Source of the DNA: Fastidiosibacter lacustris
Lineage (GTDB): Bacteria; Pseudomonadota; Gammaproteobacteria; Francisellales; Francisellaceae
Reading direction: 5' to 3'
DNA length: 32,000 nt
Assembly: GCF_003428155.1 (NCBI RefSeq)
Contig: NZ_QLIR01000002.1
Location: forward strand, 60,001 to 92,000
The position numbers and the translations under genes are program-made. Below are positions 7,269 through 19,703 of this stretch, in pieces (position 1 is the first letter of the stretch; each line of letters opens with the position of its first letter). The notes below the pieces were generated by a model, which saw only the letters and a list, made by a program, of their open reading frames with translations, did no database searches and was not told the DNA's origin.

Positions 7269-9194
7269 ATGAAGAAAAATGAATTTTTGCGAAATGCACT
7301 GTTCTGGGGGCTTATTGCCATTGGATTAGTGTTTATTTTTAGCAATATGAGTACTAAGACAGATTCATCAACAGCGATGAAGTACTCAAGCTTTATTCAA
7401 CAACTTAATAGTGGCAGCATTCAATCGGTCATGGTTGATGGACGTACTTTTATCGGTACGACGGATACAGGAGAAAAGTTTACAACTTATGCTCCATTAC
7501 TTGATCAAAGCATTGTTGATCAAATGCTGAGTAAGAATACGGAGGTTTCAGCTAAAGCGCCTGAGAAACCAAGTTTACTATTGGCATTTTTATTTAATTG
7601 GCTACCACTTTTATTGATTGCTGGTTTCTTTATTTTTCTGATGATGCGTGCAGGCGGTGGCAAAAGTGGAGCTTTTTCATTTGGTAAGAGTAAGGCCAAG
7701 CTTTTAGGTGAAGACCAAATTAAGGTTACACTTGCTGATGTCGCTGGTGTCGATGAAGCAAAAGAAGAGGTCAGTGAAATTGTGGATTTCTTAAAAAATC
7801 CGGCTAAATACGAAAAAATTGGCGGTAAAATTCCTAAAGGTGTATTAATGGTGGGACCTCCTGGGACAGGTAAAACGCTATTAGCGCGTGCGATTGCAGG
7901 TGAAGCTAAAGTTCCGTTTTTCTCAATTTCAGGTTCCGATTTCGTTGAAATGTTTGTTGGGGTTGGCGCATCTCGAGTTCGAGACATGTTTGAACAAGCA
8001 AAAAGACGTGCACCTTGTATTATTTTTATTGATGAAATTGATGCTGTTGGACGTCATCGTGGCGCAGGTCTAGGAGGTGGACACGATGAGCGTGAACAAA
8101 CGTTAAACCAAATGCTCGTTGAAATGGATGGTTTTGCCGATAATGAAGGTGTGATTGTCATTGCTGCAACTAACCGTCCTGATGTTTTAGATCCTGCGTT
8201 ATTGCGTCCTGGTCGTTTTGACAGACAAGTAACGGTTGGTTTACCAAGTGTCAAAGGTCGTGAGCAGATTCTTAAAGTACATATGCGTAAAGTAGCAGTT
8301 GGCGAGGAGGTGCGTGTTGATTGGATTGCGCGCGGCACATCTGGTTTCTCAGGGGCTGAGCTTGCTAACTTGGTCAATGAAGCTGCTCTTTTTGCTGCAC
8401 GTTCCAACAAAGAAATTGTTGGAATGGAGGAGTTTGAAAAGGCGAAAGACAAAATCTTAATGGGAGCAGAACGCCGTTCTATGGCAATGAGTGATGAGCA
8501 AAAACGCTTAACTGCGTATCATGAAGCAGGACACGCTATTGTTGGTCGTTTGGTGCCAGATCATGATCCTGTGTATAAAGTGAGCATTATCCCTAGAGGA
8601 CGCGCATTAGGCGTTACAATGTATTTACCAGATGGTGATCAAGTCAGTCAATCGCGTGAACAACTACTTAGTCGATTATCGAGCATCTTTGGTGGGCGGA
8701 TTGCAGAAGAGCTTATTTTTGGCTATGACAAGGTGACAACTGGAGCTTCAAATGATATTCAAGTTGCAACTAATATTGCTAGAAGCATGGTTACAAAATG
8801 GGGGTTATCAAACAAGATGGGACCAATCTTGTTTGACGAGGATGATCAGCAACCATTTTTAGGGCAAAGTATGAGTAAAAGCCCTAAACATTTCTCAGAT
8901 AAAACCGCGTTAGATATTGACGAGGAAGTACGTCGCTTGATTGATGAAAATTATGCAAGGGCAGAAAAAATCCTACGTGAGAACGTTGACATTCTCCATG
9001 CTATGGCAGAGGCGTTGATGAAATATGAAACGATTGATTCAATGCAAGTAGATGACTTAATGGCGCGTCGTGAAGTCAGAGAACCAGGTGACTGGGGAGA
9101 TAGTTATGTTCCTAAAGAGGAAAAGCAAACTATAGCAAATAGACCAAGAAACAATGAATCATCTAATGTGTCAGAAACCACTCTAAAAGAGTAA
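7269..9194 (+). CDS. ftsH: ATP-dependent zinc metalloprotease FtsH
   Basis: Two N-terminal TM helices are present. Walker A is GPPGTGKT, Walker B is IIFIDEID, the second region of homology is [19 protein letters not shown], and the zinc site is HEAGHA. Length is 641 aa. Confidence 0.97.
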
Positions 9195-9223
9195 ACTACA
9201 CCTTTTTAACTTGTGGGAAAATT

Positions 9224-9249
9224 GGCTATTCGGCTTAAGTAGTTGATTT
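9224..9249. repeat. terminal inverted repeat (transposase-proximal end)
   Basis: The sequence is GGCTATTCGGCTTAAGTAGTTGATTT, with its outer end 95 nt from the transposase stop codon. It matches the reverse complement of 18169..18194 at 24 of 26 positions. Confidence 0.7.
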
Positions 9250-9318
9250 CATCAAATGATTTTTGTATGCGGCATATAAGGTTGATATATCCTGTCCAAA
9301 ATATTGTTGATCATTTTC

Positions 9319-10545
9319 TTAAACATCTTGAGATTTTTGCTCAAACTGAGTGTATCTTTTAAATGTCTTTCGTTCTTTGTATTTCCGTGACTGTAAGCTA
9401 AGTATTGCTTTTGCTCTTAGAACATCAAATGAATATCCACGCCCATTTTTATTGATCAATTTAATCAAACCATTGATCGCCTCAGTACAGGCATTAGTAT
9501 ATTGATAGTAAAAGTAATTAAAGATTTCATCCTTCCAGTTGCTCACGGTTTTTGCCACTAACTCATAAAATACTTTAACGTTATCATCAATAAGAGTGAG
9601 CCAAGTGTCATACGCTGCTAATGCTTTTTTTCTATCTGATAACTCAAAAATACAAAAGAAAGCTTCTTTTAGAACATAAACCTGTTCTAATTGAGGGAAT
9701 TTACCAAACCAGTCATATAATATAATTTTTTCCATCTCAGATAAATCACGTTGGTGCTTCAATAATAAATAACGATCATTCTTTAATTGTTTTCTCTCTT
9801 TGTGTGATAAGGCAGACTCAATTGATTTTCTTGCTTTTTCAAGCGCCTCTTGTGCTAATTTGACGACATGAAATTTATCAATGACAACAACAGCGTGTGG
9901 TAAAAGCGCTTTCACAACACTATGGTAAGGGCGCCACATATCAATTGAGACGACAGAGATTTTATGTCTATCAGGTAAGTTACTAATGTATTTTGACAGT
10001 GTCACTTTATTGCGATCAACAAGCATATCAATAAGGCATTTTTCTTTAACGTTTGTAATCACACATCGAGCTTTTCCAATCAGATGTGCCTCATCAATAC
10101 CAAGTATTGTTGGTGTAATTGGTTTGTAGCTATTTATTTCTGGCGTTAATGATTCTTTAAATATTCTTCTTACCGTTTTCTCATCTAGACCAATTTCATC
10201 CGCAACAGATTGGAAAGTCTTATTGAACGCATTTTTATAAATATACTCGTGCAATCGATTTGTCATCAATGCTTTTTCGTGCATCTCACACGAGTGCTGA
10301 TATAAGGTAGCACCACAGTCTTTGCATTTATAGCGTCTACGCTTAAGATAAATACCAACAAACAACCCATGTAATGGAATGTCACGATAAAGTGTTGTTT
10401 TGCTGCCATTTTTAATCAGCTTACCAGTATTACAGGATTTACAGGTGGTCGGATCAATGACTATTTCAGCATTGATATGGCATGTATGATCAGCATCCTT
10501 TTTAATATTAATGACACGAATATCACTTAGTTGTAAGTTGCCCAC
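9319..10545 (-). CDS. ISL3 family transposase
   Basis: The N-terminus has a zinc-finger region (HTCHI, CKSC, YKCKDCG). The DDE_Tnp_ISL3 core is present (ILGIDEAHL, VSIDMWRPY, VIDKFHVVK). The start is a GTG at 10545, preceded by AAAAGG. Confidence 0.9.
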   Translation of the reverse strand: MGNLQLSDIRVINIKKDADHTCHINAEIVIDPTTCKSCNTGKLIKNGSKTTLYRDIPLHGLFVGIYLKRRRYKCKDCGATLYQHSCEMHEKALMTNRLHEYIYKNAFNKTFQSVADEIGLDEKTVRRIFKESLTPEINSYKPITPTILGIDEAHLIGKARCVITNVKEKCLIDMLVDRNKVTLSKYISNLPDRHKISVVSIDMWRPYHSVVKALLPHAVVVIDKFHVVKLAQEALEKARKSIESALSHKERKQLKNDRYLLLKHQRDLSEMEKIILYDWFGKFPQLEQVYVLKEAFFCIFELSDRKKALAAYDTWLTLIDDNVKVFYELVAKTVSNWKDEIFNYFYYQYTNACTEAINGLIKLINKNGRGYSFDVLRAKAILSLQSRKYKERKTFKRYTQFEQKSQDV

Positions 10546-13500
10546 TGTCTGCCTTTTCAGAATAAATCATATCTGCAATCAAAGAAGTAATTAATGCCAT
10601 TTTTTCTTTTTGTCCTAGCGCTTGCATGCTTAAATCCGTATGAGTACGTAGACTATCTACAACAGCTCTTTCTACTGATTGCGGCAAACTTCCCTCCATT
10701 GCGCGCTGTTTATCGTTAGCATGAATTTGTGCCATGGTTTTTTCATCTTTTTTCACTTTATCTTTAACACTGGTCACAAAATTGATAGCATCTTCATCAC
10801 TAAAGTCCCCCGAAAATAGCTTATTGAATTGATCGATAATTTTGCTCAAAACTTCAGTTTTCTGATCTCGTGCTTTAGCTTGACCTGGGTTAATGGCATC
10901 TATTTTGCTGCCTTTCAAGTCAATGCTTTGGGTTGCCTGTTTAGTTAGCTTGTAGTTAGTAAGTACCACATCGCCAATATCAACCTCAGGTGCTAGTTCA
11001 GTGGTATATAAATTTGGCAACAAGCCACGCGCATAACTTGAGAATTTTTCTAGTTCAATATCATTATAATCATGCACCTGAGACAAGAAGTCGTACATTC
11101 TGATAAAGGTTGATAACGATTTTTTAAACACATCTAAGTAATTTTTGGCTTCTGAGACTTCTTTTAGCTGTGAGTTTGCATTTTTGATAGCAATCTCATC
11201 ATTAGAATCCTTTGCGCGATTAAGCTCAAGTTGTGCGTGCTTGATTGCCTCAATAGTCTGTCTATAACGCCCTTTAAATCTATCTGCTGCGGGCTTAATG
11301 GCAGCACTCATTAGATTTTGAAGGTTCTTGTGCTGATAAAATACTGCCGAATAAGCATTTATTTCAAGTGTGGTAAATATACCATATTCATCAAGCTTTT
11401 CATAAAGCTCATACACTAAATTTTCATCAGTTACATCGGTGATTTCAGCCGCCTTATAGTATGGCTCAAACGCTTCTTTTATATCTTGAGCTTTATTGAC
11501 AAAATCTAAGATAAAAACATGATCTTTGCCGGTATAGGTGCGATTTAAGCGTGATAATGTCTGTACAGCATCAACACCACTTAATTTCTTATCAACATAC
11601 ATAGCGCAAAGCTTTGGTTGGTCAAAGCCTGTTTGAAATTTATTAGCAACAAGCATGACTTGGTAATCATCCGTATCAAAGGCATCACGCATATCACGCC
11701 CCTTTAATGTAGGATTCATATTGAGCTCAGTATATTCCTTTTCATCCCCTTGATAATCATCATTAACTTTACCAGAGAAAGCAACCATTGCTGCAACGTT
11801 ATCAAAAAGTGGATTACCTTTATTTTTTTCTAAAAAGCGATCAAACTCAATTTTATATCTTACCGCGGCCTTGCGTGAGGAGGTAACCACCATTGCCTTG
11901 GCTTGGTAGTTTAATAATGATTTAATTGAAGTGGCAAAGTGGTGAAGAATAATGTCAATCTTCTGTGCAATCGCATAAGGATGTAAAGTGGTATAGCGCT
12001 TAAGTTTGATTTTTGCCTGCTTGGTTTCTACTTCACGCTCGCCATCTTTTGAGATAATCTTTAACGCGGTTTCATAGGTTGTATAATCTTTCAAAACATC
12101 GAGAATAAATCCTTCTTCAATGGCTTGTTGCATCGTGTATACATGAAATGGCAATGGCGGATTGTCCTTGCTTGTGGGGTTATTTGGGTTTGCAGGTCGT
12201 CCAAACAGCTCCATCGTTTTGTGTTTTGGTGTAGCAGTGAATGCAAAAAAACTGATATTGGTTAGTTTGCCTTTACTCTCAAGAGTTGCATTTAATACAT
12301 CCTCAGCACTCATCTCATCATCAAGCATTTCAGCATTTAATACTTCCTTCATTTTTTGCGCTGTTTTGCCTGATTGAGATGAATGCGCTTCATCGGCAAT
12401 AATGGCAAAGTTTTTGTCCTTTAATGTGGTTGTTTTTTGTATCTCTTCCAACACAAAAGGGAAGGTTTGAATCGTCACAGGAATGATGGCAGCACCATCT
12501 TTTAAGGCGACAGCAAGCTGATTAGATTTGCTTTGAAAGTCCGAGTTTCTCTCAATAGGTACCACTAAGCCGTCAACTTGCTCAAATTGTTTGATCGTTT
12601 GTTGTAGCTGACTGTCCAAAACCGTGCGATCGGTAATTACAATTACGGTATCAAAGTAACGCCTGCCTTCATTACTATGCAATGATGATAATTGATGCGC
12701 AAGCCATGCAATAGAGTTAGACTTGCCACTGCCAGCACTATGCTGGATTAAATATTTCTGACCAACCTTTTCAACATGCACGACCTCTAGTAATTTCCTA
12801 ACCACATCAAGCTGATGATAACGCGGGAAAATTAACGCTTCTTTTTTCTTGATAACGCCTTCAGCCGTTGTTTTTTCTTCAACTTGAAGGTGCATGAATT
12901 TAGCTAAAATATTGAGCAAACTCTCTTTGCTTAAAACTTCCTGCCATAAATATTCAGTTGCAAAGCCCTCTGGTTTATGCGGATTGCCTTTACCGCCATT
13001 ATGACCTTTGTTGAAAGGCAAGAAAAAGGTATTTTTGCCTTCAAGCTTAGTCGTCATATACACTTCATCGGTACTCACTGCAAAATGCACCAACGCACCA
13101 CGCTTGAAAGTAAGCAATGGCTCATCTTTACGTGTCGGCTTATCTTTTGGTAAACGATCTGATTTATATTGCTCAATGGCATCTTCAACCGTTTGCGTAA
13201 AGTCGGTTTTTAACTCGATGGTCGCAACAGGGATACCATTGACAAATAACACCAAATCAATGCTATTTTTATTATTTTCAGAATAAAATACTTGCCTGAC
13301 TACGCGACAAATATTGGCATGATAATTACGTTCCAAAGTCTCATTATGTAACTGCGGTTTAAATTGGCATAGTTTTAATCTTGCTGGATGTGCTTTTATT
13401 TCATGTCGCAAATAATGCAAAGCACCTTTATCATGAATTTTTTTAGCAACAAGTTTGGTAATTTCATCATCTGCTTTATCTTTAAAGCGTAGTTGATATT

Positions 13501-13672
13501 TCTCATAGGCTTCAGATTGTGTCATTTTAATATAATCGAGTAAATCCTCTGTGTATAACGCCAAAGATTTATCATAACGACTTGAAACACCTTCAACCCA
13601 GCCGCATTCGGGTATGCACATATCTAAAACAACTTGCTGTTCCATTTTTTTCTCGTGATGTTTTGTACTCAT
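10523..13672 (-). CDS. hsdR: type I restriction endonuclease subunit R (HsdR)
   Basis: The N-terminal PD-(D/E)xK nuclease block is IDLVLFVNGIPVATIELK. SF2 helicase motifs are present: QHSAGSGKS, IADEAHSSQ, FTATP and QTLSRLNRT. At 1049 aa it looks full length. Its start overlaps the upstream stop (ATGA). Confidence 0.93.
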   Translation of the reverse strand: MSTKHHEKKMEQQVVLDMCIPECGWVEGVSSRYDKSLALYTEDLLDYIKMTQSEAYEKYQLRFKDKADDEITKLVAKKIHDKGALHYLRHEIKAHPARLKLCQFKPQLHNETLERNYHANICRVVRQVFYSENNKNSIDLVLFVNGIPVATIELKTDFTQTVEDAIEQYKSDRLPKDKPTRKDEPLLTFKRGALVHFAVSTDEVYMTTKLEGKNTFFLPFNKGHNGGKGNPHKPEGFATEYLWQEVLSKESLLNILAKFMHLQVEEKTTAEGVIKKKEALIFPRYHQLDVVRKLLEVVHVEKVGQKYLIQHSAGSGKSNSIAWLAHQLSSLHSNEGRRYFDTVIVITDRTVLDSQLQQTIKQFEQVDGLVVPIERNSDFQSKSNQLAVALKDGAAIIPVTIQTFPFVLEEIQKTTTLKDKNFAIIADEAHSSQSGKTAQKMKEVLNAEMLDDEMSAEDVLNATLESKGKLTNISFFAFTATPKHKTMELFGRPANPNNPTSKDNPPLPFHVYTMQQAIEEGFILDVLKDYTTYETALKIISKDGEREVETKQAKIKLKRYTTLHPYAIAQKIDIILHHFATSIKSLLNYQAKAMVVTSSRKAAVRYKIEFDRFLEKNKGNPLFDNVAAMVAFSGKVNDDYQGDEKEYTELNMNPTLKGRDMRDAFDTDDYQVMLVANKFQTGFDQPKLCAMYVDKKLSGVDAVQTLSRLNRTYTGKDHVFILDFVNKAQDIKEAFEPYYKAAEITDVTDENLVYELYEKLDEYGIFTTLEINAYSAVFYQHKNLQNLMSAAIKPAADRFKGRYRQTIEAIKHAQLELNRAKDSNDEIAIKNANSQLKEVSEAKNYLDVFKKSLSTFIRMYDFLSQVHDYNDIELEKFSSYARGLLPNLYTTELAPEVDIGDVVLTNYKLTKQATQSIDLKGSKIDAINPGQAKARDQKTEVLSKIIDQFNKLFSGDFSDEDAINFVTSVKDKVKKDEKTMAQIHANDKQRAMEGSLPQSVERAVVDSLRTHTDLSMQALGQKEKMALITSLIADMIYSEKADSGQLTTK

Positions 13673-14130
13673 TTCTTGCCTCTTCCCTTTGGTAATTGAT
13701 CAATGACCTTATCAAAATCACTTAACCGCTGATCGTTATGCTTTATCTCATTGGCATGAAATGTATCATAAGCTTGCTCTGCTAATTGATTAGTTGCCCA
13801 TTGGCGGAATCTTGTTGCAACATGAGATCTAACCCGATATCCCACTGAGATGATCATATCCAAATTATAATAATCAACAGCCCTATTTACTTGTCTCTCA
13901 CCCTCAAATTGAACTGTTCGGAAATTCCGAACAGTTGAAATTTGTTCAAGCTCATCTTCTTCATAGATATGTTTAATGTGTTCACTAATAGTTGATTTTG
14001 CAACTTGAAATAACTCAGCCATGCTTTTTTGAGTAAGCCAAACGGTCTCATCTTGCAAGCGCACTTCTATTTTGGTTTTACCTGATTCAGTCTGATAGAT
14101 AATAAATTGAGATTGATTTTCAATCGACAT
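13669..14130 (-). CDS. RhuM-family protein, short form (N-terminal HTH region only)
   Basis: IIYQTESGKTKIEVRLQDETVWLTQKSMAELF...TISEHIKHIY...YYNLDMIISVGYRVRSHVATRFRQWAT matches the conserved N-terminal part of RhuM virulence-family proteins. I chose the ATG at 14130 because it overlaps the hsdS stop as TGATG. The ORF track's GTG at 14139 is the alternative. Confidence 0.7.
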   Translation of the reverse strand: MSIENQSQFIIYQTESGKTKIEVRLQDETVWLTQKSMAELFQVAKSTISEHIKHIYEEDELEQISTVRNFRTVQFEGERQVNRAVDYYNLDMIISVGYRVRSHVATRFRQWATNQLAEQAYDTFHANEIKHNDQRLSDFDKVIDQLPKGRGKK

Positions 14131-15386
14131 CAAATGCACTCCCTTACGTCAACTTTGCCTGTGACCACAGCGGTGATTAAGGCAGTACGTTTTTCTTTTA
14201 GTAGCTCAATTGCCTGTTCAGCTTTGGTAATGGTTTGGTCTATTTTAGCGGTTTGTTGGTCTAGATAATTGGCTATGGCGGTTTGTTCTTGAAGTGAAGG
14301 TAAACCTATAGTTATGTTATTTAAATCCTCCTGCGTCATACTAGGAAGGGCAGTACTGGTAGAATAGAAATCAAAATTTATTACCGTAGATCTATAGAAG
14401 ATAAATTTAGGGTTACGGTTTGCTTCGATAATTGAATAAAACATTGTATCTACTGTCCAGAACTTACCATTAATTAATAAAGGTTTATCAATTGTACCTT
14501 TTCTTCCAAATAAAATAGAAACTCCTTCATACAGATAATTAGATGCTCTTGCAAATTCACCTCCTGAACCCATTACAGGGTATCCTCCTGTATCTGTTTG
14601 TATGTTTTTATAGTCTTGACCATTTTTTATCTTTAAAGAATATTTCATTTTTTGAACAACCCAATGCTCAGGCACCTCCCCCAACCACTCAACCCCACTA
14701 TTTTTCATTTTAACCGTTGGATCTAAGCCTTTGGTCACACAATGGGTAATTAAAGCTGTGCGTTTTTCTTTGGAAAGTGCAATTAGCTTTTGATAGTGCT
14801 CAATAAGCTTATCTATTTTTGTGGTTTGTTGGTCTAGGTAGTTGGCGATGGTGGTTTGTTCTTGGCGTGGTGGCAATAATCCAAAAAGGTAGCACAGCCT
14901 TTCAGCTTTAATCCCAAGGGCAGTTGACCCAGATGCATACAAATATAGGCTAACTTGAAATGAATATGACATTATGAAATATTTAAGAAAATAGTTACAA
15001 AGTTGATTTGAACGCCCTCTGAACTTAATAATTCGTTGCGCTAATGCAATTTCTTCATTGTCAATATTTGCAACTTCACCCAATGGTGCTTCTGTAGTAA
15101 AAACCACATCACTAATCTGAGGAAGACCTCTAGACATAACCTCTGAATAATCGTTAGCAGTAATATATTCTTGTGAAAGTGTATAATCAATTTTACCTTT
15201 TTTAATATTCCTTGCTGTAACTAGGAAAATTCCTTCAGTATGCTTTTCAGGGGTCTTACCTCTATAATCAACTATTGATTCCATCATTTTCTTGAATCCA
15301 ATAACCACCCAACCCTCAGGCACTTCCCCCAACCACTCAACACCACTCTCTTTATATTTTGGATAAGGCTTCAGTTTACCACTCAC
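14130..15386 (-). CDS. hsdS: type I restriction-modification specificity subunit (HsdS), two target-recognition domains
   Basis: The architecture is duplicated. GVEWLGEVPEGWVV and GVEWLGEVPEHWVV open the two TRDs. Two conserved helical spacers are present (EQTTIANYLDQQTTKIDKLI...KEKRTALIT and EQTAIANYLDQQTAKIDQTI...KEKRTALIT). The GTG start overlaps the upstream stop (GTGA). Confidence 0.9.
   Translation of the reverse strand: MSGKLKPYPKYKESGVEWLGEVPEGWVVIGFKKMMESIVDYRGKTPEKHTEGIFLVTARNIKKGKIDYTLSQEYITANDYSEVMSRGLPQISDVVFTTEAPLGEVANIDNEEIALAQRIIKFRGRSNQLCNYFLKYFIMSYSFQVSLYLYASGSTALGIKAERLCYLFGLLPPRQEQTTIANYLDQQTTKIDKLIEHYQKLIALSKEKRTALITHCVTKGLDPTVKMKNSGVEWLGEVPEHWVVQKMKYSLKIKNGQDYKNIQTDTGGYPVMGSGGEFARASNYLYEGVSILFGRKGTIDKPLLINGKFWTVDTMFYSIIEANRNPKFIFYRSTVINFDFYSTSTALPSMTQEDLNNITIGLPSLQEQTAIANYLDQQTAKIDQTITKAEQAIELLKEKRTALITAVVTGKVDVRECI
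14239..14291. repeat. intragenic direct repeat in hsdS (C-terminal conserved spacer), copy 1
   Basis: This 53-nt segment matches 14822..14874 at 47/53 positions in direct orientation. Confidence 0.85.
14822..14874. repeat. intragenic direct repeat in hsdS (central conserved spacer), copy 2
   Basis: This 53-nt segment matches 14239..14291 at 47/53 positions. A second repeat pair lies at 14667..14699 and 15315..15347 (31/33). Confidence 0.85.
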
Positions 15387-15991
15387 TGCTTGTCTCCTTG
15401 CGGAAAGGGAATCACATTATCAATACCAGCGACATTTTCGCCCTCATTAATGCAATCGCCATCAAGATACGACTGCCAAAGCGCAATTGGTTTAGTGTAC
15501 TCTTTTTTAGTATGTGGGTTGGTGATTAAGGCACTTTGCCAGTAATCCATTGTTTTATTACAAACTATTTGACTCACTTCACCATGGCGGAAACATTCAA
15601 ACTCTAGGATTTGTTTAAATTGATTGAGATGTGTCGTCACACTGCGATTATCCGTTTTACAAAAATCAAGCTGCTTTAACTGTGGCTCAAAATAATCACG
15701 AATCTGGCAACCGTAGTCTTCAAACCTTGGAATTTCAAGCTCATTAATCGCCCATTCGATCATTGCTGGCAGCGAATCAAAGAGATATTTTGCACCACCT
15801 ATTTCAAACAATGGGATAGCTAATGTGACTCGCGTGTTAACGTGCATAAACACGGCAACATCTTTGCGTTGGATTTTTAACAAATCAACTGCCCAATCAT
15901 CATAAAAAGGTAAAGACTGCTCTTTTGATTGTGGCAAGTCCATTATTTTAAGCCTGCTTGCCATTTTAGCCGTTAATCTAAATTGGGCCAT
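15383..15991 (-). CDS. uncharacterised 202-aa protein embedded between hsdM and hsdS
   Basis: The ORF is clean, with AAGGGA 8 nt before the ATG at 15991. Its stop overlaps the hsdS start. It has no signal peptide or TM segment. The N-terminal pattern (RLTAKMASRLKI...DDWAVDLLKIQRKDVAVFMHVNT) faintly recalls DUF6933-type proteins, but that is from memory and unverified. Confidence 0.6.
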   Translation of the reverse strand: MAQFRLTAKMASRLKIMDLPQSKEQSLPFYDDWAVDLLKIQRKDVAVFMHVNTRVTLAIPLFEIGGAKYLFDSLPAMIEWAINELEIPRFEDYGCQIRDYFEPQLKQLDFCKTDNRSVTTHLNQFKQILEFECFRHGEVSQIVCNKTMDYWQSALITNPHTKKEYTKPIALWQSYLDGDCINEGENVAGIDNVIPFPQGDKQ

Positions 15992-16014
15992 TTATGTTTC
16001 CCTTAAAACGCAAA

Positions 16015-16052
16015 AGCCGCTAAAGTGTGCGTGAATCAGAGGCATAGCGGCT
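16015..16052 (-). terminator. possible intra-operon attenuator hairpin between hsdM and downstream genes
   Basis: On the minus-strand RNA, AGCCGCTA (22-nt loop) TAGCGGCT is followed by TTTGCGTTTT. It sits in the only sizeable gap (107 nt) in the operon. The large loop makes it a weak candidate. Confidence 0.25.
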
Positions 16053-16098
16053 ATGTTGCCCCTAAGTATATTCGCAAGGATCCGAAAATGCAAGCACC

Positions 16099-18060
16099 TC
16101 ATGAATGCACCTCGCCCAAAAGCGCTAATATCTCTTTGGTAACTGCATCTAATTCTGCGTCAATTTCTGCTAACGCGCGTGGTGGTTTATACTCGTAAAA
16201 GTAACGATTAAATGGGATCTCATAACCAACAATACCAATGTTACCATCCTTCTCATCGCGTTTACTCTCATCAATCCAGGAATCTGCTACATGCGGTTTG
16301 ACTTCCTTTTCAAAGTAATCATAGATATCCTGTTGTAATGGGATATTTTCATAATCTCTTAAGTCAGTATTTGGCTCGGGGTTGCCTTTGCTATCAACAC
16401 AGATTTCAGCATTATCATTGGTTTGAGAGAAATGTTTTTGCAGTAATTTAAATTGTGCTGCGGTCAGCTTGACATTTAGGTCTTTTATAAATTGATCTCG
16501 CGATAAGTACTCTTCTTTTTTGCAACTTGTTAAGGCATTCAATATTTCCTGTTGTTGTTCATCTTTAAGCTTCAAAAACGCGTTATCCTCTTTAAGCGCA
16601 TTGATGTTGTTCTCGTCTTTTGGGTAAAAGGCAAGCTTTAATGGTCGCTCAATGGTTACCCGTCTAAAACCAAACTCAGTATAATCAAATAACTTACTTG
16701 TCTTAGTTTGTTCAAAGTTGCCATACGCTTGAACAATGTCAGCAATAACATCTTCATCTAAGTATTTACGTTTAGATCCCAATGACTTGCGCATGGGGCT
16801 ACCTTTATCTGCAGCATTAATTAGTTGCACTTTACCTTTGCGCTCAGGTGATTTTTTATTGCTTAACATCCAGATATAAGTAGAGATACCCGTATTAAAA
16901 AACATATCCGTAGGTAAAGCAATGATGGCTTCCAACAAGTCATTTTCAAGCACATAACGCCTGATTTCAGACTCCCCTGAACCAGCGCCACCTGTAAATA
17001 AGGGTGAGCCATTAAGAATAATCCCAATGCGACTGCCACCTTCTTGTGAAGGACGCATTTTTGAAATAAGGTGCATTAAGAACAATAACGAACCGTCACT
17101 CACTCGTGGTAATCCAGCGCCAAAACGCCCGTTATAGCCTTGGATCTTATGTTCATCTTTTACTGCCTTTTCAACCTTTTTCCATTCCACACCAAATGGT
17201 GGATTAGATAGCATATAATCAAATTTTTTAGACGTAAGTTGATCGTCACTTAAGGTGTTGCCAAATTTAATATTGTCCGCATCTTCGCCTTTGATTAAAA
17301 TATCTGCCTTACAAATGGCAAAGGACTCAGGATTCAACTCCTGTCCATAAGTTTTTAAATGGGCATTGGGATTAAGCTCCGCAATATATTCACTGGCTGA
17401 TGTTAGAAAACCGCCTGTGCCAACTGTAGGATCATAGATTGAGCGTACCACGCCTTGATCAGTTAACATCGCATTATCTGCACTGAAAATTAATGAAGTA
17501 GCTAAACGTACAATGTCTCGTGGTGTAAAATGCTCCCCTGCGGTCTCGTTAGACTCCTCGGCAAACTTGCGAATCAACTCCTCAAATAAGTTACCCATTT
17601 CATAATTTGAAACCGCTTCAGGACTTAAATCGCAATCTTCTTTTGTAAAACGCTCGATGATCTTATACAGCAAGTTTGCTTCATCTAGGTAATGTATTTG
17701 ATCTATAAACTTAAATCGATTAAAAATATCTTTGATATTGTCACTAAACGAATCAAGGTAGGTAATAAGGTTTGCTCTTAAGTTATCAGAGTCAGCCTTT
17801 AATTTAGCTAATGTATATTCCGATGTGTTATAAAACGTGTTTTGCGACTTAGCAGTTAAAATGGCATTTAGCGGAATGCCTAAATCTTTGCGTTTGTTGT
17901 ATTCATCGACAACATCTTGCCTTGTCGGCGCAAGAACTGCCTCAACACGCGCTAAAACCGTAAAGGGCAAAATCACCTTACCAAAATCAGAGCGTTTATA
18001 ATCACCGCGCAATAAATCTGCAATTGACCATATCAATGAGGATAAGTTTTTTGTGTTCAT
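16099..18060 (-). CDS. hsdM: type I restriction-modification DNA methyltransferase subunit (HsdM), long form
   Basis: An HsdM_N-like N-terminus (IWSIADLLRGDYK) is present. The AdoMet site is IYDPTVGTGGFL and the catalytic N6-adenine motif is LSNPPFGVEW. A ~200-aa C-terminal extension ends with the GYEIPFNRYFYEYKPPR block seen in long HsdM proteins. Confidence 0.93.
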   Translation of the reverse strand: MNTKNLSSLIWSIADLLRGDYKRSDFGKVILPFTVLARVEAVLAPTRQDVVDEYNKRKDLGIPLNAILTAKSQNTFYNTSEYTLAKLKADSDNLRANLITYLDSFSDNIKDIFNRFKFIDQIHYLDEANLLYKIIERFTKEDCDLSPEAVSNYEMGNLFEELIRKFAEESNETAGEHFTPRDIVRLATSLIFSADNAMLTDQGVVRSIYDPTVGTGGFLTSASEYIAELNPNAHLKTYGQELNPESFAICKADILIKGEDADNIKFGNTLSDDQLTSKKFDYMLSNPPFGVEWKKVEKAVKDEHKIQGYNGRFGAGLPRVSDGSLLFLMHLISKMRPSQEGGSRIGIILNGSPLFTGGAGSGESEIRRYVLENDLLEAIIALPTDMFFNTGISTYIWMLSNKKSPERKGKVQLINAADKGSPMRKSLGSKRKYLDEDVIADIVQAYGNFEQTKTSKLFDYTEFGFRRVTIERPLKLAFYPKDENNINALKEDNAFLKLKDEQQQEILNALTSCKKEEYLSRDQFIKDLNVKLTAAQFKLLQKHFSQTNDNAEICVDSKGNPEPNTDLRDYENIPLQQDIYDYFEKEVKPHVADSWIDESKRDEKDGNIGIVGYEIPFNRYFYEYKPPRALAEIDAELDAVTKEILALLGEVHS

Positions 18061-18091
18061 TTTGTATTATCTAAAATCTTGAATAATCGTG

Positions 18092-18120
18092 AATCTAGCA
18101 GTAAAGGATGTCAAAATCAA
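18092..18120 (-). promoter_or_regulatory. candidate sigma70 promoter for the hsdM operon, inside the transposon leader
   Basis: On the minus strand, TTGATT (-35), a 17-nt spacer and TAGATT (-10) lie about 30 nt upstream of the hsdM ATG. An overlapping TTGACA is also present. This is a sequence match only. Confidence 0.25.
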
Positions 18121-18168
18121 TGGCATCATCAACCATAAAAGCCGATATTTAAAATAATATTCAAAAAT

Positions 18169-18194
18169 AAATCAACTATGTAAGCCGAATAGCC
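18169..18194. repeat. terminal inverted repeat (hsdM-proximal end)
   Basis: The reverse complement reads GGCTATTCGGCTTACATAGTTGATTT, matching 9224..9249 at 24/26. A further ATTTTTG match follows if a 9-nt gap is allowed. Confidence 0.7.
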
Positions 18195-18254
18195 TTAATT
18201 AGGTTTCATTGACTGTTTATTGTTAATCATTATTTGATGATGGGAGGAAGTAGG

Positions 18255-19703
18255 TTATGCAAAAAAATGTTCAATCAATTCGCAAGTGTACCAAACTCCA
18301 ACACCACTGATTTCGGTTGGAATAGGAGCAAGCCCACCTTTATGTTTGCAAGAAGCTAAATCCATGTGTAGCCAACGAATTTCTTTGCCTACGAATTGTT
18401 GCAAGAATTTAGCTGCAAGAATATGGTCGGCATTACCCGTTACATAGCATTGTTTTAAGTCAGCGATATCTGATTTCAGTTCTTCTAAATAATGCTTATC
18501 CATTGGGAATGGCCAGACTTTTTCTGCGCATTTTATGCCATATTTGACGAGATTGTGCTGCCAATCATAATTGTTACTGAAAATGGCAGAGTATTCAGTA
18601 CCTAGCGCACGCACTGCCGCCCCTGTTAAGGTTGCATAATCAATCAGTAGATCTGGTTTTTGCTGGCTAGCAAGACAGAGTGCATCGGATAGTACCATTC
18701 GTCCTTCGGCATCGGTATCAACAATTTCAATCGTTTTACCGTTTAAAGCGGTAATGACTTCATTAGGTAAAAAAGCATTTGCACCAATATTATTGGTGGT
18801 AATCGCCAAATAGCAATGCACTTGGAAAGGTACTTGTAAGATGCTTAACGATAGCAAGCTGCCAACTGCAACCGCGCTGCCCATCATATCATCATTCATG
18901 CCATACATATGTTGTGGTTGCTTTAAGCTTACTCCACCTGTATCAAAGCAAATACCTTTGCCGACTAAAGCAATGGTGTTAGTAAACTCCCTTGGTGTAT
19001 AGGATAGCTTAACAATGCCCGCGACTTCTGATGCACGTGCTACTGCACTGAAAGCGCCTGCCCCCATATCTTGAAGTTGTGCTTTGTCATACAGTGTATA
19101 TCCCCAACCTTCTGTTTTAGCCATGTTGGCTAATATTTCAATATAGATAGCGGGGGTTAAATAATTTGTAGGTAAAATAGTAAGATAGCGTGCTAACGCA
19201 TTGCCTTTATGTTTGGCAATAATTTCTAGAAAATCACTTTCGATATAATCGCCAATGATATCAATTTCAGCATTGCATGGCTTATTATCGCGTTTAAAGT
19301 TAGGCATGTTTTGAGTGTGGGCAAGCAGTGCTCGGACACATGCTTCTACTGTTACATTATCTGCGTGATTAGTAATCAAGGCAATGTGTTTGGCTTCTAA
19401 TACATTTGCCTCAGAAAGCAATTTAGAAAGATCCTTTAACCATAAGTAAAGCTCACAATCGCCTAGATTTTGTTTAACAATGATTCGAGTTCCTCTAGCG
19501 TTAGGTAGTTGAGTGAAATAGCCTTTCTTGTCGTGTGGCGCATAATACATTTTGCGCTGATATATCGTTTCTCCATGAGGTAGACTTAACCATTGCTGCT
19601 CGTCATCAGAAATAGCAATAATTACATCATATTGCTGTTGTGTTTGATTATAATCTTGAATAAAGTTTAACCTTGTTGCTGAGAGTGATTGTAGTACGTT
19701 CAT
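18255..19703 (-). CDS. pepA: leucyl aminopeptidase, M17 family (PepA-like)
   Basis: M17 active-site blocks are present: VGKGICFDTGGVSLK and VDTDAEGRMVLSDAL, plus ATLTGA. I chose the ATG at 19703 because AAGGA lies 7 nt upstream. The ORF track's TTG at 19721 is less likely. Confidence 0.88.
   Translation of the reverse strand: MNVLQSLSATRLNFIQDYNQTQQQYDVIIAISDDEQQWLSLPHGETIYQRKMYYAPHDKKGYFTQLPNARGTRIIVKQNLGDCELYLWLKDLSKLLSEANVLEAKHIALITNHADNVTVEACVRALLAHTQNMPNFKRDNKPCNAEIDIIGDYIESDFLEIIAKHKGNALARYLTILPTNYLTPAIYIEILANMAKTEGWGYTLYDKAQLQDMGAGAFSAVARASEVAGIVKLSYTPREFTNTIALVGKGICFDTGGVSLKQPQHMYGMNDDMMGSAVAVGSLLSLSILQVPFQVHCYLAITTNNIGANAFLPNEVITALNGKTIEIVDTDAEGRMVLSDALCLASQQKPDLLIDYATLTGAAVRALGTEYSAIFSNNYDWQHNLVKYGIKCAEKVWPFPMDKHYLEELKSDIADLKQCYVTGNADHILAAKFLQQFVGKEIRWLHMDLASCKHKGGLAPIPTEISGVGVWYTCELIEHFFA

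Follow-up and report, generated by a model that had tools for sequence, protein, structure and literature searches.

A probable ISL3-family transposon carrying a type I restriction-modification system in Fastidiosibacter lacustris

The block at positions 9224-18194 of a 32,000-nucleotide stretch of the Fastidiosibacter lacustris genome (hereafter the window) spans 8,971 bp between inverted repeats and is very probably one ISL3-family unit transposon, that is, an insertion sequence (IS) with passenger genes, probably fixed and decaying at this site. The whole block is read as a single transposon because sibling copies share its gene order and ends, because homology stops at the terminal repeats and because one complete sibling, L164 (L numbers designate related loci), is flanked by a target duplication. 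An earlier note on this DNA had proposed that the entire unit, type I restriction-modification (R-M) genes included, is an ISL3 transposon and moves as one. The same three observations support this for the lineage, whereas the window copy has probably lost autonomous mobility. A precedent for the design exists in ISKpn25 of Klebsiella pneumoniae, and the window element is a distinct, divergent lineage, not a new kind of defence transposon.

Ends and gene content of the unit

The 26-nt repeats at 9224-9249 and, in reverse complement, 18169-18194 match at 24 of 26 positions and form both the longest and the top-ranked inverted repeat in a scan of 8500-19500. A degenerate 26-mer search of the 32-kb window at up to three mismatches returned just these two sites (shuffles expect 0.00) and no third, internal copy, including in the interval between hsdR and the transposase gene (tnp). 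A composite transposon is ruled out, as there is one tnp and there are two repeat copies in 32 kb even at this tolerance. Both repeats begin GGCTATTCGG and have the form of ISL3 ends, which are about 15-39 bp long, start with GG and occur once at each end of the element. They are closely similar to the ends of seven relatives (L164, L001, L167, L168, L169, L171 and L003), which answers the earlier note's question of whether the closest relatives of this transposase would have comparable ends. The outer edge of the right repeat lies 95 nt from the tnp stop and 29 nt from the end of the ftsH open reading frame (ORF) at 9194, and the left repeat lies 60 nt from the pepA stop at 18255. These distances, the coordinates, the length, the 24/26 match, the six minus-strand genes and the lack of an internal repeat are all as the earlier note had described them. 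Its suggested comparison of composition with the flanks gave no separation: GC is 0.34-0.40 inside the block and outside it alike, and neither GC content nor skew sets the element apart. The features are as follows, from left end to right end of the element.

18169..18194, left terminal repeat (IRL), upstream of the cargo; reads inward GGCTATTCGGCTTACATAGTTGATTT; L164 and L169 each have an equivalent IRL on the upstream side of their cargo, together with a target duplication
18061..18168, minus strand, leader between IRL and hsdM; segment conserved with L164 (TTGACATCC.TTACTGCTAGATTCACGAT)
16099..18060, minus strand, hsdM, type I methyltransferase, 653 aa, intact; Pfam HsdM_N and N6_Mtase; PADLOC MTase_I, E 3e-280
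15383..15991, minus strand, DUF6933 / PADLOC PDC-S63 accessory gene, 202 aa; Pfam PF22016; PADLOC PDLC05056, E 3.8e-124, full length
14130..15386, minus strand, hsdS, specificity subunit, 418 aa, two target-recognition domains; Pfam Methylase_S in two stretches; PADLOC Specificity_I
13669..14139, minus strand, rhuM-like remnant, 156 aa; Pfam Virulence_RhuM; PADLOC PDC-S05
10523..13672, minus strand, hsdR, type I restriction subunit, 1049 aa, intact; Pfam HSDR_N, SWI2_SNF2, ResIII and T1R_D3-like; PADLOC REase_I
9319..10545, minus strand, tnp, ISL3-family DDE transposase, 408 aa, GTG start; truncated by TAA at 9319-9321, relatives having 431-436 aa
9235..9318, minus strand, remnant of the transposase C-terminal tail, in frame past the nonsense codon and running into the right repeat; ENDQQYFGQDISTLYAAYKNH..., by comparison with the intact 431-aa L001 protein and L002
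9224..9249, right terminal repeat (IRR), the tnp-distal end; reads inward GGCTATTCGGCTTAAGTAGTTGATTT; the same sequence type ends L161, L164, L001, L167, L168, L169 and L171

All six genes lie on the minus strand, in the order IRL, hsdM, DUF6933/PDC-S63, hsdS, rhuM remnant, hsdR, tnp, IRR. The transposase carries the Pfam domains Zn_ribbon_ISL3 (PF14690), HTH_Tnp_ISL3 (PF13542) and DDE_Tnp_ISL3 (PF01610), each above its gathering cut-off, and scores 274.5 bits against NCBIfam NF033550, where the cut-off is 180. At its N-terminus the protein is complete, retaining the Zn ribbon and the helix-turn-helix (HTH). The cargo belongs to type I R-M by its HsdM, its HsdS with two recognition domains and its HsdR with nuclease and superfamily 2 (SF2) motor domains, all of them intact. 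As judged from its reading frames the system is apparently intact and may well be functional.

Within the cargo, hsdS holds the internal conserved repeats D1, D2 and D4, and the DUF6933 gene occupies the equal slot in L164 and L167 (gene calls) and in L002 (tblastn, 58% identity). Relative to the 337-340-aa gene of relatives, rhuM has lost about 552 nt from its interior, in frame, at approximately 13787-13791, as placed by tblastn and by blastn junctions, and the deletion is also present in a second strain, L161 (153 aa). The last 23 nt of hsdR overlap the start of tnp. L001 and L164 have an hsdR of equal length with the same 23-nt overlap, as read from ORF and gene coordinates, and in L002 a 1049-aa hsdR likewise runs into tnp. 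The tnp start codon is ATG in L001 and GTG in the window, at an identical position.

Sibling copies and mobility of the lineage

Relatives of the element were found by a transposase scan of GTDB genomes (L001 and L002) and by protein search with context look-ups (L162-L164, L167 and L168). Look-ups of the exact window proteins encoded by tnp, pepA, ftsH and hsdM gave no hit, the gene calls of the source genome evidently being different or missing in that collection. A metagenome scan added a sole further close relative, L081, which is the source contig of L002. L164 is a complete copy, with an IRL that reads GGATATTCGGCTTAACTAGTTGAT, the gene order hsdM-DUF6933-hsdS-RhuM-hsdR-tnp and an IRR that reads inward GACTATTCGGCTTAACTAGTTGAT, and it is bordered directly outside both ends by perfect 8-bp direct repeats, AAAACTGA. 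Its transposase, like those of L162 and L163, is 91% identical to that of the window, and its flanks are unrelated to those of the window, with an amino-acid permease on one side and an unknown gene on the other. In blastn, L164 and L001 both cease to resemble the window at the repeats, and the right flank of L001 is a third one, unlike the other two. The unit is thus seen in three distinct flank contexts: window and L161; L164, L162 and L163; and L001. Such a pattern is what transposition of a whole unit typically leaves behind when loci are compared.

The arrangement of cargo and transposase is equally persistent. L001 (tnp 91% identical) and L002 (69%) both read hsdM...hsdS-RhuM-hsdR-tnp with an hsdR of 1049 aa whose end tnp overlaps, and hsdR still leads straight into tnp at 69% (L002), 61% (L167) and 54% (L168) tnp identity. 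In every relative at 46-98% tnp identity the left repeat and tnp are separated by cargo, and in all type I versions hsdR abuts or overlaps tnp. The right repeat of L002 is missing (10224-10300), and what follows the tnp stop resembles, by eye, the C-terminus of an integrase of the IS3 type (...YIRYYNQRRLHTADG); the element was therefore either cut short by a different IS or had itself landed in one. The L001 and L002/L081 contigs begin inside hsdM, and those of L170-L172 begin at or near the left repeat. Such breaks in the left part of the elements, on metagenome and MAG contigs, could stem from several copies being present in the communities concerned, or from insertions that vary between strains.

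Two alternatives would deny the block its status as a single mobile unit. In the first, a simple ISL3 IS truncated at its 5' end inserted against the 3' end of a chromosomal hsdR that was already present, the R-M operon is not cargo, and the repeat at 18169-18194 is an unrelated solo remnant of another insertion. This would account for the lack of a repeat between hsdR and tnp, for the overlap of the two genes and for the missing duplication at the window copy, but the same overlap, 1049-aa hsdR and ends recur in independent contexts, the same arrangement is found at 69-54% tnp identity, and the L164 duplication encloses the whole unit. The transposase, moreover, is complete at its N-terminus, and simple tnp-only copies, by which the earlier note would have recognised a truncated IS, are absent among the relatives examined in this clade. 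Truncation of a simple IS is barely conceivable on this evidence.

In the second, the transposase is the domesticated last gene of type I R-M operons, perhaps with a role in regulation or DNA rearrangement, at a locus that is itself immobile and whose repeats are regulatory or binding sites. The operonic linkage and overlap of tnp with hsdR are conserved across deep divergence, and in two lineages tnp has independently gained an in-frame nonsense codon shortly before its 3' end, with the tail still in frame, both of which would suit a domesticated gene. However, perfect 8-bp duplications lie outside the repeats of L164, L169, L079 and ISKpn25 at unrelated loci, including a split feoB, and ISKpn25 transposes experimentally (PMC8768599). 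Domestication is therefore highly improbable.

In a unit transposon of this kind the transposase would bind both GGCTATTCGG... repeats and move the whole interval between them, generating an 8-bp duplication of an AT-rich target on insertion. ISL3 elements use a circular copy-out/paste-in intermediate, and by analogy the unit would probably move through such an intermediate. The position of tnp at the end of the type I cargo operon, overlapping or abutting hsdR, suggests translational coupling. Given the 23-nt overlap between its start and the stop of hsdR, tnp would most likely be the last cistron of the R-M operon, transcribed from a promoter by IRL and translationally coupled to hsdR. The R-M cargo would in turn protect the host from foreign DNA and help to retain the element via post-segregational killing.

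State and insertion site of the window copy

The PepA protein encoded next to the element is 100% identical to that of F. lacustris. The second strain, L161 (GCA_024208055.1), has this element too, at an identical pepA/ftsH position and between the same flanks, and the insertion therefore predates the split of the two strains and has been inherited vertically. The earlier note had allowed for relatives with this R-M locus devoid of repeats and transposase; L161, the sole related genome found with the locus, has both. Nucleotide identity between the strains is 98.7-98.9% in flanks and element alike, except in hsdS (window 14291-15308, L161 5156-6236), where both target-recognition domains have been replaced and just a central conserved region of about 197 nt aligns, at 89.8%. 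This difference looks like a recombinational specificity switch. At 2429-4365 of L161 the hsdM gene is split into two called ORFs of 51 aa and 524 aa. The split fits a 1-nt indel with respect to the window, whether a genuine frameshift or a fault in the assembly.

The TAA at 9319-9321 that truncates the transposase is common to the window and L161. L164 has TAC at this position and L001 TGC, and past the nonsense codon the conserved tail of the transposase (...QQYFGQDISTLYA.YKNH) continues in frame. Loss of this tail is likely to matter, as its motif YGxxIxTL is kept even in L079 and ISKpn25. An independent TGA stands at tnp codon 387 in L164, L162 and L163 (approximately 11159-11161 in L164), where the tail is again in frame; the duplications of L164 are perfect. 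The two independent nonsense codons could signify recent inactivation, a tolerated truncation or read-through. Given the lost tail, the internal rhuM deletion, the missing target duplication and the vertical inheritance of the same insertion in two strains, the window copy is probably fixed, decaying and no longer autonomously mobile.

Several points weigh against an active transposon at this locus, or against parts of the mechanism set out above. As the earlier note had reported, no 8-bp direct repeat flanks the window copy, the flanks in tnp orientation being CTAATTAA and AATTTTCC. The truncated transposase may be inactive. A tnp cluster at 90% identity has two member sequences, with its representative listed on one contig, and neither genome shows signs of a second tnp copy; nothing consequently shows directly that the element has moved within Fastidiosibacter. 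A search via PepA homologues recovered no empty ftsH-pepA site. The leader has one promoter-like match, TTCACG-16-GATAAT at 18093-18066, and a promoter and terminator scan of the region is at background, with 28 found against 31.7 expected from shuffles. Co-transcription, hsdR-tnp coupling, the circular intermediate and R-M activity are all features that we infer. The missing duplication concerns the window copy alone, since L164 (AAAACTGA), L169 (TTATTTTA), L079 (ATTATTCC) and ISKpn25 (GAAATTAG) have duplications.

At the window copy the missing duplication points to rearrangement and not to mutational decay, because the flanking 8-mers agree at just 2/8 positions while the repeats still match at 24/26, which makes point-mutation decay of a former duplication unlikely. 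A genuine ISL3 R-M transposon may have come to its present flanks not by simple insertion into an ftsH-pepA spacer but through a later rearrangement that stopped precisely at one of its ends, joined two unrelated flanks and destroyed the duplication. Candidate events are recombination involving a second copy, or a deletion or inversion mediated by the element. The surroundings of pepA bear on this. In L165 (Cysteiniphilum, 7575-10295) and L166 (6815-8797), the two nearest readable relatives, pepA converges on polA and not on ftsH, so that the element sits at a synteny difference. The 660-aa convergent neighbour in L166 had been considered as FtsH, which BLASTP ruled out; its sequence and the Cysteiniphilum context indicate PolA. 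L165 and L166 are distant, however (PepA 75-78% identical), the other side of pepA differs too and synteny in the group is loose, and the synteny difference is thus a weak hint at rearrangement. Nor was a second copy or solo end with complementary flanks found, though the search did not span the whole genome. Taken together, a later rearrangement at the element end is a serious possibility that falls somewhat short of an even chance. The earlier note's picture of an insertion into a short convergent ftsH-pepA spacer accordingly holds as to the distances, but a clean insertion is unconfirmed, given the lack of an empty site and the pepA-polA arrangement in relatives.

ISKpn25 and the cargo space of the ISL3 subgroup

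A tblastn search of plasmids returned 2,037 Klebsiella records, which pointed to ISKpn25. This ISL3 element, named in ISfinder and 8,154 bp long, lies on Klebsiella pneumoniae plasmid pKPN4 (NC_009650) and on pKpQIL-like plasmids, and an ORF table is available for it (PMC8796155). On pKPN4, RefSeq lists a class I SAM-dependent DNA methyltransferase, a restriction endonuclease subunit S, a type I restriction endonuclease (1085 aa) and an ISL3-like element ISKpn25 family transposase. Entrapment vectors have caught ISKpn25 transposing as the full 8,154-bp unit into several AT-rich sites with an 8-bp duplication each (PMC8768599). Read directly, its ends are GGCTATTTGCATTCTGAGG... and GGCTATTTGCATTCTAGGG..., its duplication is GAAATTAG and its length is exactly 8,154 bp. 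Like the window element it has one ISL3-type repeat pair starting GGCTATT, and it carries a complete type I R-M passenger in the order IRL-hsdM-hsdS-hsdR-tnp-IRR on one strand, with no internal repeat and with tnp last, adjoining hsdR. The 8-bp AT-rich target duplications are likewise shared, for the window lineage as seen in sibling copies.

The two are nevertheless well separated. Their transposases are 35% identical and the repeats diverge past position 8, and the window element is not an isoform of ISKpn25. The window lineage adds the DUF6933/PDC-S63 and RhuM/PDC-S05 slots and has a 23-nt hsdR/tnp overlap where ISKpn25 has a 4-nt gap; it resides in Thiotrichales chromosomes, as opposed to enterobacterial plasmids. 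The ISKpn25-like element L079 (3304-18012 of Paraglaciecola polaris NZ_BAER01000017.1) is 14.7 kb long, has a transposase 88% identical to that of ISKpn25 and splits feoB with the duplication ATTATTCC, and its HsdR and HsdM are about 38% and 45% identical to those of the window. Downstream of tnp it holds an extra 6.7 kb or so encoding two thioesterases, an aldo-keto reductase, TetR, a ChrR cupin protein, a glutathione S-transferase (GST) and PagL. Its hsdM is apparently frameshifted.

In a rough neighbour-joining tree built without bootstrap, the window, L164, L001, L002, L167 and L168 form one clade, all with type I R-M, which is sister to a clade with C5-methylase cargo; ISKpn25 and L079 are distant, with lineages of unrelated cargo between. 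Because lineages with other cargo separate the type I lineages in the tree, independent capture is suggested, and ISL3 elements may have captured type I R-M twice.

Passenger genes within a single ISL3 repeat pair are also known in elements of the ISPst2/ISPpu12 type, which share the ISL3 transposase and the 8-bp duplication. ISPst2 has repeats of similar pattern to those of the window (GGGTATCCGGAATTTCTGGTTGAT) and carries a permease and an ArsR-family regulator (PMC6305408), and ISPpu12a, which has been described as a functional transposable element and cloned on a derivative of a trap plasmid, encodes a predicted CzcD protein (PMC4447125). These elements differ from the 9-kb window element in their size of about 3 kb and their small, non-defence cargo. 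Defence systems are also moved by transposases as cargo of Tn7-like transposons, or as R-M genes between IS copies in composite elements. The window element differs from both: it moves by one DDE transposase gene and one pair of repeats, and has neither targeting machinery nor flanking IS copies. A literature search turned up no description of an element of the window type, ISKpn25 being the precedent found.

The cargo of the wider subgroup was surveyed by an unbiased search in which the sequence downstream of tnp was paired with its best inverted match within 10 kb upstream. In the ISL3 subgroup loci surveyed the left repeat lies 0.75-8.6 kb upstream of tnp, and sixteen cases have perfect 8-bp duplications flanking the element. 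The cargoes include the following.

L003 569-6209 and L170-L173, C5 methylase with GmrSD_N and HEPN
L169 5296-11343, C5 methylase with GHKL ATPase, on a conjugative element; target duplication TTATTTTA
L021 1670-6028, PstI-like type II R-M; target duplication TGTTTTTC
L020 8862-11333, Dam-type methylase; target duplication CTTTTTTC
Further members of the subgroup, Fic; P-type ATPase; Hsp33 with MerR; metallo-beta-lactamase-fold protein; TPR/Sel1 proteins

The C5-methylase elements L169, L170-L173 and L003 belong to the sister clade of the window lineage, whereas L021 and L020 are more distant members of the subgroup. As cargo varies between subgroup members, the interval from IRL to tnp appears to be a general cargo space that often holds R-M or other defence genes. 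Variation extends to the accessory slots of the window lineage, where the interval from hsdM to hsdS holds DUF6933 (PDC-S63), Abi_2 with DUF6933, or Fic, and that from hsdS to hsdR holds RhuM (PDC-S05) or DUF4357/RAMA. It is tempting, at close to even odds, to regard the window element and its sister lineages as an undescribed deep ISL3 lineage that is a dedicated carrier of defence genes, with interchangeable cargo, a tnp tied to expression of the defence operon, and type I R-M captured at least twice independently, here and in ISKpn25.

Our results place beside ISKpn25 a second, distantly related lineage in which a minimal one-gene DDE transposon moves an entire type I R-M system. The second lineage is chromosomal, in environmental Thiotrichales and other low-GC Gammaproteobacteria, which shows that such elements are not confined to clinical plasmids. 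In annotation, units of this kind routinely appear as an R-M operon beside a stray transposase. In F. lacustris the element has the look of a fixed insertion in decay, whose R-M system is still intact and whose specificity subunit has been swapped between strains. The cargo space of the ISL3 subgroup bears on the spread of defence systems, and the broader pattern of defence cargo in this subgroup is the part that might merit follow-up.

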